A DNA stretch of 60,117 nt, filler included. It is 2 parts of 2 records of this genome, joined end to end, with 100 filler letters (N's around TTAATTAATTAA, not from the genome) between each part and the next. Parts side by side here need not be neighbours in the genome. Positions count along the whole stretch, not along the records: positions 29,099 to 60,117 come from DRR723986_13288; 1 more part is not named here. The stretch is one strand, 5' to 3'. Of the stretch, positions 28,999 to 60,117 are shown in pieces. A program made the translations under genes and the position numbers. Numbering within the stretch: the stretch's first letter is position 1; every line of letters starts with the position of its first letter. The notes under the pieces were generated by a model that saw only the letters and a program-made list of their open reading frames with translations, searched no databases and was not told the origin of the DNA.

Positions 28999-29098
28999 NN
29001 NNNNNNNNNNNNNNNNNNNNNNNNNNNNNNNNNNNNNNNNNNTTAATTAATTAANNNNNNNNNNNNNNNNNNNNNNNNNNNNNNNNNNNNNNNNNNNN
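28999..29098. other. artificial contig-joining spacer
   Basis: 44 N + TTAATTAATTAA (stops in all six frames) + 44 N; base composition changes across it. Confidence 0.98.
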
Positions 29099-29102
29099 AA
29101 CA

Positions 29103-29128
29103 GGGTCGAGCCCTTAGGGCTGGATCCC
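29103..29128. repeat. REP-like palindrome at the contig B start
   Basis: GGGTCGAGCCCT-T-AGGGCTGGATCCC; the same element occurs at 60097-60117. Confidence 0.7.
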
Positions 29129-54138: not shown

Positions 54139-55308
54139 ATGTCCTGGTCGAAGATAATTGGACAGAGTCGTGTCAAGACCGTTCTGCAACGCGTAATTGC
54201 CGATGGCAGAATCGCTCACGCCTATATGTTCTGGGGTACCCAGGGTATCGGCAAAGACGCGCTGGCACTGGAGTTTGCCAAAGCCGTAAACTGTTTAAGT
54301 CCCGTGCGCAATGGCGCAGAATACGAAGCCTGTGACAGCTGCGACAGCTGCCGCCGCGCCGCCGCCCTGCAACATCCCAATATCAAACTGATTACGGCAC
54401 TGCCCACCGGCAAAGGCGAAGACCGCAAGTCCAAATCCCCGCTGGCCAAGCTCAGCGAAGATCAGCTCAAAAACGTGCGTGCTCAATTACAGCTAAAAGC
54501 CGAAAACCCCTACCACCGCATCAGCATTCCCAATGCAAATGCCATTCGCATCGCAGCAATTCGCGAAATAAAACAAGGTGTCGCCCTCAGCGGTGCGCAG
54601 CAGGGACGGCGATTCTACATTGTCTCAAATGCCGACAGTATGAATCCCGAAGCAGCCAATGCCTTCCTGAAAACTTTGGAGGAGCCCTCCCCCGACGTTA
54701 CGATTGTCCTTACAACCGCACGCCGCGATCAGATGCTCCAGACAATTCGCTCGCGCTGTCAGGATGTGCGCTGCGCCGTGCTGAGTGATGCTGAAATCGC
54801 TACTGCGCTCAGCCAAAACAGCGACGCCAATATCACTCCCGAAAATTCGCGACTGATTGCCAGGCTGGCCGACGGCAGCTACACAAGAGCAATGAGTCTT
54901 ACCGGTGATGACTTCAGTGAAATTCGTGCAGAAGTTGTTGCCTTCTTCCGCGCCATGTTAAAAAAGCGCAACTACGTCCTGGAGCTCTACGCCGTAATTG
55001 AGCGCATTGCAGCCGACAAGGACCGCAAACGCGTTGAGCAAATGTTAACGCTGCTGCTGCTCTGGCTACGCGATGCATTTTCGCTCTCAGCCAGCGGAAA
55101 TGCCGACGCGGTTGTTAACATCGACCAGATTGTACCGATGCAGCGTTTTGTAGAAAATTTCCCAGGCGCCGATTTACTGGCTGCCAGCATGAAAGTTGAG
55201 GAAGCTCTCCGCTACCTTAAACAGAACGTGCAAATCCAATTGACTCTCACGCGGCTTTCGCTGGAGATGCGCAGCATCTTCATTCGCAACGTCACGCGTG
55301 CGGCCTAA
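54139..55308 (+). CDS. holB: DNA polymerase III subunit delta'
   Basis: HAYMFWG..GIGK, C..CDSCDSC zinc module, ANAFLKTLEEP, TIRSRC; adjacent to a PSP1 gene as usual. Confidence 0.92.
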   Translation: MSWSKIIGQSRVKTVLQRVIADGRIAHAYMFWGTQGIGKDALALEFAKAVNCLSPVRNGAEYEACDSCDSCRRAAALQHPNIKLITALPTGKGEDRKSKSPLAKLSEDQLKNVRAQLQLKAENPYHRISIPNANAIRIAAIREIKQGVALSGAQQGRRFYIVSNADSMNPEAANAFLKTLEEPSPDVTIVLTTARRDQMLQTIRSRCQDVRCAVLSDAEIATALSQNSDANITPENSRLIARLADGSYTRAMSLTGDDFSEIRAEVVAFFRAMLKKRNYVLELYAVIERIAADKDRKRVEQMLTLLLLWLRDAFSLSASGNADAVVNIDQIVPMQRFVENFPGADLLAASMKVEEALRYLKQNVQIQLTLTRLSLEMRSIFIRNVTRAA

Positions 55309-55338: not shown

Positions 55339-57381
55339 TTGAAATATATGGGTGAGCAAGCAGGCTCGATTGTCACACTTTCACATATTGATCTCGGTAA
55401 ACTCGATGATTTACCGGATGCCGCTACTGTCCACGTAGCCAAAACCATCCGCAACCGCAAGTCCAACTGTGATGCCTCCTGCGGTAAGGATGACGGTGGC
55501 TGCGATAATTGTGGCAGCAAGTCCAAAGACGAAACTCCTGCAGCGCAGAACGGTGCGGATGCTGCGGCGGAAGCTACCGCCAAAAGCAGTAGCAGTGCCA
55601 AAAAAGGCGCACTGTTAACCGGAGACAGTGATTCGCCGGCAGATCCCGACACTCCGGCGGCGGACACTGATGCCGGCAAAGGCTACTCTCACATTGTGGA
55701 AGTTGAGTTTAAGAGCCGCCGCAAACTTTTATACCGCAATGAGAAACACCTGGAACTCGCCCTCGGTGATCTGGTAGTCGTCGAAGCTGAACGCGGTCTG
55801 GATGCCGGCCGTGTTTGTTCGATGGGCCGGATTGCCAACGAGAAGATGCATATCATCTATAAAGGTGAAGAGCCGCTGCATCAGATTGTGCGCAAAGCCA
55901 ATACGAAAGACCAGGAAAAATTCGATCAGAATAAAGCCAGCGAAAAAGAAGCATTCTCGGTGTTCCGCGAGCGCATTAAACACTTTGAGCTGGACATGAA
56001 AGGTGTTGATGCTGAGTGGCAGTTTGACCACCACCGCCTCACCCTGTTCTTTACAGCTCCGCGCCAGGTGGATTTCCGCTCACTGGTTCGCGACCTGGCG
56101 GCGATCTTTACGACGCGGATTGAACTGCGCCAGATTAGCCCGCGCGACGAAGCCAAGCGCGTCGGCGGCATGGGAATCTGCGGCCGCGAGCTCTGCTGCA
56201 GCACCTTCCTGAACCGTTTTGAATATATCACGCTGGACCACGCGCGTGAGCAGCAGCTGGCGCAAAACCCGACCAAGTTGAGCGGTTTGTGTGGACGCCT
56301 TAAATGCTGCCTCCTCTACGAGATCGACTACTACACATCCGCACTCAAAAATTATCCGCCGCTGAACTCTACGATTGTTACAGCCGACGGTGGTGGCAAG
56401 ATGTTCAAGATTGACATCTTCCGCGATGAAGTGCATCTGTACTACGCCAAGTCCGGCAACTATGGCACGGTTTCCCTGAGTGATCTGAATAATCTGCGCC
56501 GTGACGGCAAAGTCCTGGCGCCCGGCCAGGCCTATGTTGAGCCGCCCGAGCCTGAAAAAGAGCACAATCTGGATAAACTCGACGCCACCGCACGCAAGCG
56601 CGGAGACGGACGCCGTGGCGGCCGCCGCCAAAAAGCCGACGGTGAAGATGGCAAAGAACGCCGCATTCGCAACAAACGCCAGGATCCCAAAACAGCCAAA
56701 GACGCAAGTAAAGCGCCCAAAGACGGTGCAGATGCACAGTCGCCCGCCGGTGAAAAGCCACAGGGTGAAGGCCAGCGCTCCGAACGCCCCTCGCGCCGCC
56801 GCAGACGTGGCGGACGCGGATCCGGCGGTCGCGGATCACGCCCGGACCAGGCGGACGCCAAATCCAATGAGTCCGGCGGCGAGTCCACAGCTGAAAGTCG
56901 CACAGACAACAAAGGTGCGCAGCAGCCGAACGACAAACGCGAAATCAAAAAGAATCCCAGGAAAGACGCCGACGCCAAAGCCGACGGACCAGGCGACTCC
57001 AGAAATGATGCTGGTGACGCCAACAAAAAAGAAGGCCGCGGACGTGGCCGCGATGGTCAACGTGATGGCAACCGCGACTCTAACCGCGGAGGCCGTGGCG
57101 ACCGACGCGCGCGCGGCAAAGACGGCAAAGCACGCACCGCGGACGGCGCGAAGGATGCTGCGAGCAAGGGTGATGTGAGCAAAGGTGAAGCGCCGGCCAA
57201 CAAAGACGCCAAGTCTGGAGGCGCCAAGTCTGGAGACGGCAATCCGGCTGCCGGACCAAAGCGCGGTGATACTCCGGCTGGAGGTTCCAGCACCGCCAAA
57301 TCAGCGGATAAGCCGAGCGGGACAAACAAAGAAAACTCCAGTGGAAAAAGTCAGAACTCCGGTGACGGCTCCAACTCCTAA
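55339..57381 (+). CDS. ricT: PSP1/RicT (YaaT) family protein with long disordered termini
   Basis: VEVEFK, VDFRSLVRDLA..TRIELRQI, GICGRELCCS, LSGLCGRLKCCLLYE. Confidence 0.9.
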   Translation: MKYMGEQAGSIVTLSHIDLGKLDDLPDAATVHVAKTIRNRKSNCDASCGKDDGGCDNCGSKSKDETPAAQNGADAAAEATAKSSSSAKKGALLTGDSDSPADPDTPAADTDAGKGYSHIVEVEFKSRRKLLYRNEKHLELALGDLVVVEAERGLDAGRVCSMGRIANEKMHIIYKGEEPLHQIVRKANTKDQEKFDQNKASEKEAFSVFRERIKHFELDMKGVDAEWQFDHHRLTLFFTAPRQVDFRSLVRDLAAIFTTRIELRQISPRDEAKRVGGMGICGRELCCSTFLNRFEYITLDHAREQQLAQNPTKLSGLCGRLKCCLLYEIDYYTSALKNYPPLNSTIVTADGGGKMFKIDIFRDEVHLYYAKSGNYGTVSLSDLNNLRRDGKVLAPGQAYVEPPEPEKEHNLDKLDATARKRGDGRRGGRRQKADGEDGKERRIRNKRQDPKTAKDASKAPKDGADAQSPAGEKPQGEGQRSERPSRRRRRGGRGSGGRGSRPDQADAKSNESGGESTAESRTDNKGAQQPNDKREIKKNPRKDADAKADGPGDSRNDAGDANKKEGRGRGRDGQRDGNRDSNRGGRGDRRARGKDGKARTADGAKDAASKGDVSKGEAPANKDAKSGGAKSGDGNPAAGPKRGDTPAGGSSTAKSADKPSGTNKENSSGKSQNSGDGSNS

Positions 57382-58088
57382 TGCCGCAGAATATCCACTA
57401 CATTGTGTTTGCGCGATATCCGGCGCTCAATAAAGTCAAAACGCGCCTGGCTCGTGAGTTGGGCGCGCAGCAGGCCCTGGAGCTGTACACTGGCATGATG
57501 CTCGATATTGTTGAGCGTCTGCTGGCGCGGACCACGGTGACCGTCTATGTCTATCCGGCGGCGGACCTGCCAAACTTTGAGCGTTTGATCCTCGCTGAAC
57601 TCGGCGCACATTCCAGGCTCACATTCAGGCAGCAAAAAGGCGAAAACCTTGGTGATCAGATGTTAAACGCATTCCGCGAGCAGGAAGAACAGAAGCAGCT
57701 GCCCGCAATTATTATCGGCACCGACTCCCCCAGCCTGCCCGACGAATACCTGCAAATGGCCGAAGACGAGTTAGCCAACAAACAAGCCGTAATCGGCGCG
57801 TGCGAAGACGGTGGATTTTATCTGCTGGGCCTGCATGCCGCGCATTCGTCGGCCTTTTTTGGCGAGGACTACAGCCACAATCAGGTCTACCAAAACACCT
57901 TGGACGCGCTGCAAAGTTGCTGTGCCGATTTGACGGAGACGCCGCTCTGGTTTGATATTGACTATCTAGCCGATCTGGAGCGGCTGCATGCCGAGCTCAA
58001 TGCGGCCGATAGTGGCGCCTACACGCCGCGGCGGACACATTCGTTGTTGAATGAACTTTTCAAACCGTCAAATTCGACTGGAGCCTGA
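57381..58088 (+). CDS. DUF2064/TIGR04282-family glycosyltransferase-like protein
   Basis: FARYP..VKTRLA, QKGENLG, IIGTDSP, DGGFYLLG, WFDID. Confidence 0.88.
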   Translation: MPQNIHYIVFARYPALNKVKTRLARELGAQQALELYTGMMLDIVERLLARTTVTVYVYPAADLPNFERLILAELGAHSRLTFRQQKGENLGDQMLNAFREQEEQKQLPAIIIGTDSPSLPDEYLQMAEDELANKQAVIGACEDGGFYLLGLHAAHSSAFFGEDYSHNQVYQNTLDALQSCCADLTETPLWFDIDYLADLERLHAELNAADSGAYTPRRTHSLLNELFKPSNSTGA

Positions 58089-58089
58089 G

Positions 58090-58551
58090 ATGGAAGATCG
58101 CGATCAAAATGAGGTCGATGAGCGCAACCGCAGCGGTTCCGGCGTTGGAACTGAGGCGGCCAAGAAATCTGGAATCCGCAATGCCTCGCTGATTTGCCTG
58201 GTTGTCGGATTGGCCATGCTGCCGTTTGCGCGCATGTTCCCGATGATGGTGCTTTCGACCGGACTGATGGCCTGCGGAATCGGCGGTTTGCTCTTTGGTC
58301 CCAAACTGCTGCCTAACAGTCGCGCAGACATCCTTAAACGCGAAAATCACGTGCTGGCAATTGCCGCCAAACACCAGGGCATTTTGACGCCGACGCGCCT
58401 GGCACTTGAGGCACGCATGACAATTGATGAAGCGCGCCGCGAGCTCAACAAACTTGTTAAGGCCGGTGCCTGCCACACCTTGCTGCAAGATGATGACGGC
58501 CGTGTGGAGTATCACTTTCCGGATTTTAAGGAAAGGCCGAGGCTGGATTAG
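58090..58551 (+). CDS. hypothetical membrane protein with C-terminal winged-helix-like domain
   Basis: Two TMs then GILTPTRLALEARMTIDEARRELNKL..GRVEYHF; ATG 58090 follows the upstream stop. Confidence 0.75.
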   Translation: MEDRDQNEVDERNRSGSGVGTEAAKKSGIRNASLICLVVGLAMLPFARMFPMMVLSTGLMACGIGGLLFGPKLLPNSRADILKRENHVLAIAAKHQGILTPTRLALEARMTIDEARRELNKLVKAGACHTLLQDDDGRVEYHFPDFKERPRLD

Positions 58552-58973
58552 TGATGGCAGATGATGACAATTTTGCAGATAGCATCGGAATCCTGGTAAC
58601 CGACCAAACATTCGGTATCTGTCTTGCTAAACTTCTGCCTGATGATTCGATTGAATTCAGTAGAGAAATATTGTTTAGCACCGAAAATCCGGACATCGAT
58701 TCATTTGGCCTGCTCACTGATTGGTTGAAACAACACTTACGACGAGACAATTCAATAGTAGCGGTACATGGAGAGTCAGTTCTGATGGACCAAGTTTGTC
58801 AGACCGTGCACGAACTGGGATATCGCGTAGAACGAATCACAGAAAGCCGGCTCGAAGCATGCCTCGCACAATATCAGTACGAAGATCCTGACGAGCCAGA
58901 TTTGTTTGGAATTATATGCACAGCACGACTGGGTATTTATCAGTTACAAGATGAACGCCGCCTTTCCAGATAA
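58551..58973 (+). CDS. IS110 DEDD (RuvC-like) domain-like protein, catalytic residues apparently lost
   Basis: SIGILVTDQTFGICL, FGLLTDWLKQH, VHELGYRVERI, DLFGIICTARLG follow the IS110 N-domain pattern; start overlaps the upstream stop. Confidence 0.55.
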   Translation: MMADDDNFADSIGILVTDQTFGICLAKLLPDDSIEFSREILFSTENPDIDSFGLLTDWLKQHLRRDNSIVAVHGESVLMDQVCQTVHELGYRVERITESRLEACLAQYQYEDPDEPDLFGIICTARLGIYQLQDERRLSR

Positions 58974-59227
58974 ATTGCTTTGAGCTAAGCTCTCTTTAGA
59001 GTCCACCTTAGACACCTAGCTCTAAACTGCATCACAGTAACAGCTTAACCTTAAATCCCACAGTGCAAATTGACCACGAAACTTTTGAGAAAACTCTCAA
59101 AACACTGAAGGCATTGAGTCGTCAGTCTGGTCGCTGAATGGCTTGTGAATTCGGGCTCACAGGCCGTCATTTGACTTCTCCATTTCCGGGTCTGAACCTT
59201 GTCAGAACGTTCCACTTTAGGTGATTT

Positions 59228-59872
59228 ATGCAGAGCAACCCACAACAGATTGACAGCAGCATTGGTGTGATTGATGAAGACGGCTCTTACATTGTGTGCC
59301 TGACCTTGCGCAGCCAGACCGAAGAGGAAGACTGGAGCAATGAGATGAAGTTTGAGAACGACGATGCCTCGCGCGAGGAGCTGCTGAGCTGGGTTGCCAA
59401 CTTCACGCCTGATAAATCGCGCAGTCTGTTTGTGATTGCAGAAGGTGACTTCTTCCTGGACAAACTCAGCTGGTTTCTGACGGATCACAACTATCCGGTG
59501 GCGCGCCTGAGCGCGGCCGAAGTGGCGGAAATTGAGCGTGCGAACGTTGAGGAGCCGGAGCAGCATCTGGTTCAGGCGCTTGCCGGACTTGGTATGCAGC
59601 GTGAGTTTCCCATGTTTTCTGCCCCGGAACAGTCTCTGCGCAGAGCCATCAGCTTCAAGAAACAAGCCGCTGAATCCCGGCGCGACACCGAGGCGCAAAT
59701 CGAGCGTGTGCGCGGCTTTGATGTCAAGGAAGAACACATGCGTGACATCCAGCAATTGGAGGCGCAGCTGCTCAACAGTTACTCCACACTCTACAAATCG
59801 CTGCGCTCGCAGTATCAGGATGCGCTGCAGGAATTGGCGCCGGAGCAGCGTGAAGTGGTTGAACAAGCCTGA
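59228..59872 (+). CDS. IS110 DEDD-domain + coiled-coil-like protein, catalytic residues and C-terminal domain absent
   Basis: SIGVI..YIVCL, KFEND..EELLSWV, LFVI, KLSWFLTDHNYPVARL, APEQSLRR, IQQLEAQL; AGGTG upstream of ATG. Confidence 0.6.
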   Translation: MQSNPQQIDSSIGVIDEDGSYIVCLTLRSQTEEEDWSNEMKFENDDASREELLSWVANFTPDKSRSLFVIAEGDFFLDKLSWFLTDHNYPVARLSAAEVAEIERANVEEPEQHLVQALAGLGMQREFPMFSAPEQSLRRAISFKKQAAESRRDTEAQIERVRGFDVKEEHMRDIQQLEAQLLNSYSTLYKSLRSQYQDALQELAPEQREVVEQA

Positions 59873-60096: not shown

Positions 60097-60117
60097 GGGT
60101 CGAGCCCTAAGGGCTCG
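60097..60117. repeat. REP-like palindrome at the contig B end (truncated)
   Basis: GGGTCGAGCCCT-A-AGGGCTCG; its reverse complement matches 29107-29121 exactly over 15 nt. Confidence 0.7.

Follow-up and report, generated by a model that had tools for sequence, protein, structure and literature searches.

Two acidic proteins resembling the N-terminal half of IS110 recombinases, encoded behind a holB operon

We analyzed a window of 60,117 nucleotides (nt), which is the whole stretch of DNA considered here; it is made up of two contigs, linked by a spacer (28999–29098) in which N runs surround TTAATTAATTAA. The second of these, contig B (29099–60117; 31,019 nt; guanine-plus-cytosine content (GC) 0.527), carries two plus-strand open reading frames (ORFs), ORF1 and ORF2, which are the subject of this report. 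ORF1 (58551–58973) encodes 140 amino acids with an isoelectric point of 4.3 and corresponds to a stand-alone IS110-type RuvC-like domain of the RNase H fold. ORF2 (59228–59872) encodes 214 amino acids, in which an IS110-type RuvC-like domain with a net charge of −16 (residues 1–125; 59228–59602) is followed by two long helices matching the IS110 coiled-coil dimerization domain (residues 126–214 and the stop codon; 59603–59872). The two genes are separated by a spacer of 254 nt (58974–59227; GC 0.445), and a Shine–Dalgarno-like AGGTGA lies 3 nt ahead of the ORF2 ATG. The coordinates and lengths given in a preliminary description of the locus were correct. On balance, we lean towards the view that ORF1 and ORF2 are exapted, non-catalytic proteins derived from the N-terminal half of IS110 recombinases, and not fresh debris of such elements.

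Likeness of ORF1 and ORF2 to IS110 recombinases

Both ORFs are real. The codon-usage log-odds were positive only in the annotated frame (0.428 for ORF2 and 0.098 for ORF1), compared with a leave-one-out range of 0.064–0.422 for the 14 genes of contig B, which places ORF2 at the top of the host range with a host-like codon usage. All host comparisons were made with contig B genes only (n = 14). When the region was shuffled 2000 times, an open stretch of at least 214 amino acids turned up in three cases. Two antisense frames (271 amino acids, 59051–59866, minus strand; 74 amino acids, 58526–58750, minus strand) were set aside as shadow frames: they matched no Pfam family, and the 271-amino-acid frame had a lower codon score.

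Profile searches supported an IS110 origin of both proteins, with every signal weak. The NCBIfam profile NF033542 (IS110 RNA-guided transposase) matched ORF2 with E 3.2e-4, aligning residues 37–212 to profile positions 25–198 of 343. The transposase profile PHROG 2199 matched in the same register (E 0.0029; residues 34–210 to profile positions 27–203 of 356). PF01548 matched ORF2 with E 0.1 and was the sole RNase-H-type family among the four Pfam families listed; no RuvC or RuvX Pfam family appeared at E up to 10, and ORF1 alone gave no Pfam match. The only PADLOC hit, ORF2 as Cmr5 (E 0.017), was judged to be due to chance.

We built a hidden Markov model (HMM) from 60 of 120 listed IS110 proteins (1305 were found), using as the seed an IS110 gene from a related Ignavibacteria metagenome-assembled genome. 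Over a common model region, 7–88, this model gave 16.0 bits for ORF1 and 13.0 bits for ORF2. The two ranked first and second (E 1.5e-4 and 7.3e-4) among 628 six-frame pieces of the window of at least 40 amino acids, the third piece having E 0.081. In the local mode of hhalign, an alignment of ORF1 and ORF2 matched the 60 IS110 proteins with a probability of 90.5% and E 1.3e-6 over columns 10–95. The global mode aligned 190 columns, with ORF2 residues 2–214 against IS110 positions 1–202, at a probability of 92.6%. The conserved blocks IG, FxN, W(L/V), and GY.V were in register with IS110.

Reverse searches led back to the same family. When the ORF1+ORF2 profile was run against 5462 six-frame pieces of 28 loci, the best match was an IS110 transposase, and the only other IS110 protein ranked third. 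Among 254 genomes from the order to which the relatives belong, the profile matched only once, in an IS110 gene. Among 401 genomes sampled from the phylum, the profile matched eight places, the best five of which were IS110 genes by the HMM and the other three were not; the IS110 genes lay in three genomes (G416, G596, and G633). PF01548 was present in one of five relatives' genomes. Language-model neighbors provided a weaker hint: of the ESM Atlas clusters listed for ORF2, the top three carried PF01548 (score 0.84). For ORF1, the top Atlas clusters were unnamed, and a PF01548 cluster appeared at rank 11 (score 0.80). The nearest clusters to ORF1 comprise hypothetical proteins of 119–136 amino acids, with 50–82 members, from Myxococcota where the source is known (scores 0.85–0.86); they might represent a family of small RuvC-like proteins.

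The AlphaFold2 models, each computed from an alignment of two sequences, showed the strand and helix order of the RNase H/RuvC fold in both proteins, with two extra long helices in ORF2. The mean predicted local distance difference test (pLDDT) value was 86.5 for ORF1, with a predicted template modeling score of 0.83, and 65.3 for ORF2. In a Foldseek search of the PDB with the ORF2 model, the best ten matches were all IS621 or ISCro4 (E 3.0e-7 to 1.7e-6, about 203 columns), and the next family followed at 5.6e-4. VIA superposed model residues 8–214 on chain residues 4–220 of IS621/ISCro4 (Z 13.4–14.1, 177–191 residues, root-mean-square deviation ∼8 Å), while the next family reached Z 10.5 and covered the RuvC part only. 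For the ORF1 model, the best nine Foldseek matches were IS621 or ISCro4 (E 1.1e-5 to 1.6e-4, template modeling scores 0.57–0.62, 16–22% identity). Searching the PDB by sequence gave no relevant match at E up to 10. A prediction of the ORF2+ORF1 complex returned a score of 0.00, which is no verdict and carries no weight either way.

These results support the proposal, made in the preliminary description, that both proteins descend from the IS110 N-terminal module: PF01548 was the sole RNase-H-type Pfam family listed, and IS621/ISCro4, rather than ASKHA, YqgF, or other RNase H folds, ranked first in the PDB for both models. The IS621 protein is divided into a RuvC domain (1–122), a coiled coil (123–188), and a Tnp domain (189–326), as described in the account of its structure (PMC11208158). 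Based on these limits, ORF2 ends where the Tnp domain would begin, and ORF1 ends just past the RuvC domain.

The first aspartate of the DEDD set is replaced by L15 in ORF1 and I15 in ORF2, and the glutamate by H73 and A71, respectively, in every alignment (hmmsearch, hhalign, and three MAFFT modes). The changes of GID to GIL or GVI and of ME to VH or IA, first read by eye, were thus reproduced by all of these methods. In place of the conserved EATGVY block, ORF1 has HGESVL and ORF2 has AEGDFF. Ten columns in model region 7–88 with a conservation of 92% or more among 65 IS110 proteins were taken as invariant. ORF1 keeps three of these; ORF2 keeps one by hmmalign, or two when G13 is included, in line with the other alignments. 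The degeneration claimed for the TDxxD motif is less certain. Both proteins carry an acidic-E-P-acidic motif ([DE]EP[DE]) where, judged by secondary structure, the last RuvC helix begins (D114–D117 in ORF1; E108–E111 in ORF2), and the DxxD pair may survive in this form. The aligners disagree on the register of DxxD, with H113/Q116 of ORF2 in the global hhalign alignment and a gap and S95 in MAFFT.

The absence of the C-terminal serine domain, already apparent from the proteins, extends to their flanks: with a full-length IS110 HMM, the six frames of the spacer and the 3′ tail all scored below 0 bits, leaving no remnant of the Tnp/serine domain. In IS621, D11 and E60 hold a Mg ion, and mutation of D11, E60, D102, D105, or S241 abolishes recombination, according to the same account (PMC11208158). 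Because both proteins have other residues in place of D11 and E60 and these IS621 mutants are dead, recombination by ORF1 and ORF2 is excluded by analogy, and we hold with high confidence that the two proteins would be unable to recombine DNA. A residual metal-dependent activity is formally possible.

The net charge of the RuvC-like domain is −15 in ORF1 and, as noted above, −16 in ORF2. By comparison, the first 125 residues of 120 IS110 proteins have net charges of −12 to +3, and the whole proteins +1 to +28. The view that ORF1 and ORF2 are acidic where their relatives are basic therefore applies mainly to the whole recombinase, the IS110 RuvC domain being itself mildly acidic.

ORF1 and ORF2 are homologous to each other (BLASTP 28.5 bits, E 2e-5, 22% identity over 130 amino acids), as implied by their earlier designation as tandem paralogues. 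Whether they are each other's closest kin is doubtful. Some IS110 proteins score slightly higher, the best of 126 reaching 38.1 bits with ORF1 and 38.9 bits with ORF2, although such a best-of-many comparison biases the IS110 side of the ranking upward. The other ORF ranked 12th for ORF1 and fifth for ORF2 in phmmer, and ORF1 shares 30% identity over 96 amino acids with one IS110 protein. The pair could have arisen by a single duplication, or each ORF could trace back to an IS110 lineage of its own. Judged by the GC at third codon positions (GC3; 0.673 in ORF2), the two genes may have different histories; the segment comprising ORF1 and the spacer (58554–59227) has a GC of 0.44–0.45. A simulation of paralogue divergence (0 of 1000 runs kept both frames; codon-position identity 0.41/0.49/0.26) was dropped as evidence for selection after inactivation, because ORF1 and ORF2 possibly derive from separate IS110 lineages. 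All that this simulation shows is that the two diverged under protein-level selection.

Operon context and syntenic relatives

ORF1 and ORF2 lie behind a tight operon on the plus strand, the first gene of which is holB (54139–55308; PF13177, E 1.2e-44). It is followed by a PSP1/RicT-type gene (55339–57381; PF04468, E 1.2e-28), a DUF2064 gene (57381–58088; PF09837, E 2.1e-25), and orf166 (58051–58551). The start of orf166 overlaps the DUF2064 end by 38 nt. Its product combines membrane segments with a winged-helix-like domain at the C terminus, with weak matches to Pfam EutK_C (E 0.013) and to a PHROG transcription regulator (E 0.051). It is a conserved fourth member of the operon without a family name. 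The orf166 stop lies within TAGTGATG and is overlapped by the start of ORF1 (GTG 58551 or ATG 58554). The preliminary description had ORF1 overlapping the stop of a holB–ricT–DUF2064 operon; the overlapped stop belongs instead to this fourth gene. A scan for promoters and terminators gave counts no higher than in shuffles.

In the closest syntenic relatives, L001 and L002, the PSP1 segment is 92% identical, DUF2064 61%, and orf166 69%. Downstream of orf166, L001 carries a repeat, a gene for a 587-amino-acid protein, and a polyphosphate kinase-like gene. The repeat, located directly 3′ of the orf166 homologue (12740–12980 of L001), is a short tandem repeat, one frame of which reads as repeated GVQVFL.

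Other features of the contigs were also recorded. The PSP1/RicT-type protein has 680 residues, with its PSP1 domain at residues 182–266 and, beginning near residue 400, a very charged, low-complexity tail of ∼280 residues in which K, R, G, D, and S abound. Contig B carries an identical 19-nt palindromic motif at each of its extreme ends (29103–29121 and 60097–60115); the rest of the window has no further copy, and the genomes of three relatives gave no match. The motif may represent a terminal repeat or an artefact of assembly or adaptors, or the assembly may have broken at this repeat. Contig A has a GC of ∼0.36, compared with ∼0.53 for contig B, and the two contigs may stem from different organisms of one bin.

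Exaptation and its alternatives

In the exaptation that we favor, ORF1 would have kept the RuvC-like domain, and ORF2 the RuvC-like domain together with the two-helix coiled coil. Neither protein would be capable of cutting or joining DNA, as judged from the IS621 mutants. Dimerization of ORF2 would occur via the coiled coil, as in IS621. In both proteins, the acidic RuvC-like lobes may act as protein-docking surfaces rather than as nucleic-acid binders, and ORF1 would be made by translational coupling with orf166, the last conserved gene of the operon.

This explanation was weighed first against ordinary debris, in which two IS110 insertions, or one that was later duplicated, were truncated and are decaying neutrally, with the frames open by luck. 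We subjected five real IS110 genes to random mutation, without insertions or deletions, until the observed count of surviving invariant residues was reached, which needed ∼0.3–0.7 substitutions per site. A frame of 140 codons, the ORF1 case, was still open in 60 of 2000 runs, and a frame of 214 codons, the ORF2 case, in one of 2000, even with insertions and deletions left out of the model. Truly broken IS110 copies provided a natural control. Genome G416 (loci L029, L035, and L036) contains two copies broken alike into three frames (128/143, 109, and 146 amino acids) and one intact copy of 355 amino acids. The fragments of the broken copies (L029 and L035) score 36–55 bits each, and the remaining fragments are adjacent. 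In contrast, ORF1 and ORF2 score 13–16 bits and have no other fragment, including any from Tnp, beside them. Taken together, the simulation and the broken-copy control favor long maintenance of the frames after the loss of catalysis. Both ORFs probably stayed open and foldable long after the catalytic constraints of the family had been lost. Debris is also made less likely by the folding of ORF1 at a pLDDT of 86.5 almost from a single sequence, by the host-like codon usage of ORF2, and by the coupling of the ORF1 start to the orf166 stop.

Several observations weigh against exaptation, beginning with the distribution of the pair. A word search of 5.8 billion proteins (with ORF2 and with the ORF1+ORF2 alignment) found no homologue. 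A phmmer search of 1.84 billion representatives, using ORF2 as the only query, gave one match, a 572-amino-acid protein, with E 2.6e-4 in the helical part. Genome contigs, metagenome contigs (ORF2 and ORF1 queries), and viral contigs contained no homologue. The pair was not found in 26 syntenic loci, in the 254 genomes of the order, or in the 401 genomes of the phylum. It is absent from L001 and L002, where the DNA similarity ends at ∼58479, inside orf166. The pair is known from one genome only and is a single-genome orphan. The locus is a contig end, with contig B stopping 245 nt past ORF2. The neutral-decay simulation assumes an ancestor with the usual invariant residues, and the evidence for maintenance is weaker for ORF1 than for ORF2: an open stretch of at least 140 amino acids arose in 208 of 2000 shuffles, so the openness of ORF1 alone is not significant. 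The GC3 of ORF1 (0.388) falls under those of all 14 contig B genes (0.495–0.657), which points to a different history or to low expression.

The evidence for IS110 descent also has its weak points. The NF033542 match scored 19.9 bits against a curated cut-off of 140, and the PF01548 match 12.8 bits against a cut-off of 29. For ORF1, RuvX (1.7e-4) and RuvC (1.9e-4) came just behind IS621 in Foldseek. The VIA scores of ISCro4 (Z 12.8) and Thermus thermophilus RuvC (11.9) were effectively tied and do not separate IS110 from RuvC.

Debris gains from the absence of the pair in the two closest relatives, from the lack of orthologues in the databases searched, and from the slightly closer approach of each ORF to some real IS110 proteins than to the other ORF. 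The atypical GC3 and shuffle-prone length of ORF1 and the position at a contig end can be read in the same way. We regard debris as unlikely, while taking it seriously. The earlier proposal of domestication in place of decay is accordingly upheld in part. The frames would rarely survive neutral decay, which is indirect support. The synteny comparison proposed at the same time went the other way, as no conserved orthologue was found anywhere and the pair is missing even from L001 and L002. The roles suggested along with it (dominant-negative inhibitor, nucleic-acid mimic, or RNA-binding regulator) are conjectural, and no RNA element was detected.

Going further than exaptation as such, the pair might represent a bacterial exaptation of the RuvC–coiled-coil module in parallel to Nop5, a protein of archaea and eukaryotes that we consider in the final section. 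ORF1 and ORF2 would then be acidic docking or decoy subunits, for example, a host-encoded poison of bridge-recombinase synaptic complexes. In the same speculative scheme, they might have been recruited, separately or by duplication, to an operon of replication and RNA maturation. We offer this as a long shot with only a small chance of being right.

A dedicated anti-transposon factor seems improbable. Such a factor would use coiled-coil or RuvC–RuvC contacts to enter assemblies of full-length IS110 recombinases and act as a dominant-negative poison of the synaptic tetramer. The architecture suits this role, in that IS621 dimers are made by the coiled coil and two dimers are joined by RuvC–RuvC contacts, as described in PMC11208158, and ORF2 retains exactly these two modules. 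IS110 elements also occur in the phylum, in the three genomes and the one relative mentioned above. However, identity to any IS110 protein is only ∼15–30% in the aligned part, so the coiled coil is not expected to pair specifically with that of a resident recombinase. In addition, ORF1 has no coiled coil, and no further IS110 gene or copy was found in the 60-kb window.

There is a similarly slim prospect that the proteins are not derived from IS110 at all and belong to an unsampled family of small RuvC/RNase-H-fold proteins that resemble IS110 by fold only. The near-equal ranking of ISCro4 and RuvC for ORF1, the closeness of RuvX and RuvC behind IS621, the unnamed Atlas neighbors that outrank the PF01548 cluster, and the family scores, all below their curated cut-offs, would fit such an origin. 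For ORF1, the model alone would fix only the RuvC superfamily, and the probable IS110 assignment rests on structure and sequence together. Against a separate family, the sequence signals indicate IS110 and no other RNase-H-type family, the reverse searches return IS110 genes, and ORF1 shows the 30% identity to an IS110 protein given above. ORF2 has the IS110-specific arrangement of a RuvC domain and a coiled coil, and its top three listed Atlas clusters carry PF01548.

Finally, it is very improbable that ORF2 is an RNA-guided, nuclease-dead derivative that, in the manner of dead TnpB derivatives, is led to its nucleic-acid target by an RNA (formerly a bridge RNA) from the 254-nt upstream spacer. 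In favor of this reading, the spacer occupies, in position only, the place expected for the left end of an IS110 element and its bridge RNA, and IS110 relatives have been exapted for RNA-guided roles, as described for Nop5 (PMC11213020). Against it, Rfam 15, which may hold no bridge RNA model, gave no match in the spacer or tail, the fold z-scores were −1.2 and −1.4 (spacer and tail), with 20 of 200 shuffles folding as well in each stretch, the Nop/Tnp-type C-terminal domain is missing, and the net charges of the RuvC-like domains make binding to RNA or DNA unlikely.

Comparison with known systems

IS110 bridge recombinases are programmable genome editors of high current interest, and Nop5 is the only proposed exaptation of their fold, in archaea and eukaryotes. 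If the exaptation of ORF1 and ORF2 is true, the RuvC-like and coiled-coil half of IS110 can persist as an independent folding and assembly unit, and the two proteins could yield natural inhibitors or scaffolds for bridge-recombinase complexes. The weight of the case is limited, as it concerns one genome, has no relatives to draw on, and is computed only.

The IS110 recombinases (IS621 and ISCro4; PDB 8WT6, 8WT9, and 9T56) share with ORF1 and ORF2 the RuvC-like fold with the same order of strands and helices, and share with ORF2 the two-helix coiled coil after the RuvC-like domain. In contrast to the recombinases, ORF1 and ORF2 have no Tnp domain and no catalytic serine, and their equivalents of D11 and E60 are replaced. 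They have also lost seven to nine of the ten invariant residues in the aligned region. Their RuvC-like domains are much more acidic, no bridge-RNA signal accompanies them, and they are single copies in an operon context. The two proteins fall outside the IS110 family on three defining features.

The Holliday junction resolvases RuvC, RuvX (YqgF), and poxvirus A22 have the same fold as ORF1 and ORF2 (Z 9–12; Foldseek E 1.7e-4 to 1e-2). Unlike these enzymes, ORF1 and ORF2 match no RuvC or RuvX profile, the acids of strands 1 and 4 are replaced, and the coiled coil of ORF2 has no counterpart among the resolvases.

Truncated-transposase inhibitors and nuclease-dead TnpB derivatives are transposon proteins without catalysis that are kept for a regulatory or binding role. 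The inhibitors are nearly identical to their transposase, whereas the dead TnpB proteins keep a guide RNA and are conserved across many genomes. ORF1 and ORF2 differ from both, since neither near-identity nor conservation across many genomes holds for them.

We found no account in the literature of stand-alone inactive IS110 N-terminal proteins in bacteria; supplementary tables lay outside the scope of this survey, and the single-domain homologues in PMC11213020 could bear on the point. In the accessible text of Bertels et al. (2017), IS110 appears only as a mobile comparator.

After the IS110 recombinases themselves, the closest analogy to ORF2 in domain order is provided by Nop5 of archaea and eukaryotes, in which an inactivated RuvC-like N-terminal domain is combined with a coiled coil and for which a shared ancestry with IS110 has been proposed, as set out in the account of Vaysset et al. 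(PMC11213020). The analogy has its bounds. ORF1 and ORF2 are bacterial, and no Pfam Nop family was listed for them. Nop5 was not among the best 50 Foldseek matches of the ORF2 model, and no direct comparison with Nop5 was made. Unlike ORF1 and ORF2, Nop5 keeps a C-terminal Nop domain, homologous to the one at the C terminus of IS110 proteins, and it binds guide RNA, according to the same account. What ORF2 shares with Nop5, Nop56, and Nop58 is an inactivated RuvC-like domain and, after it, a coiled coil, which in Nop5 are described as serving protein recruitment and dimerization rather than catalysis.

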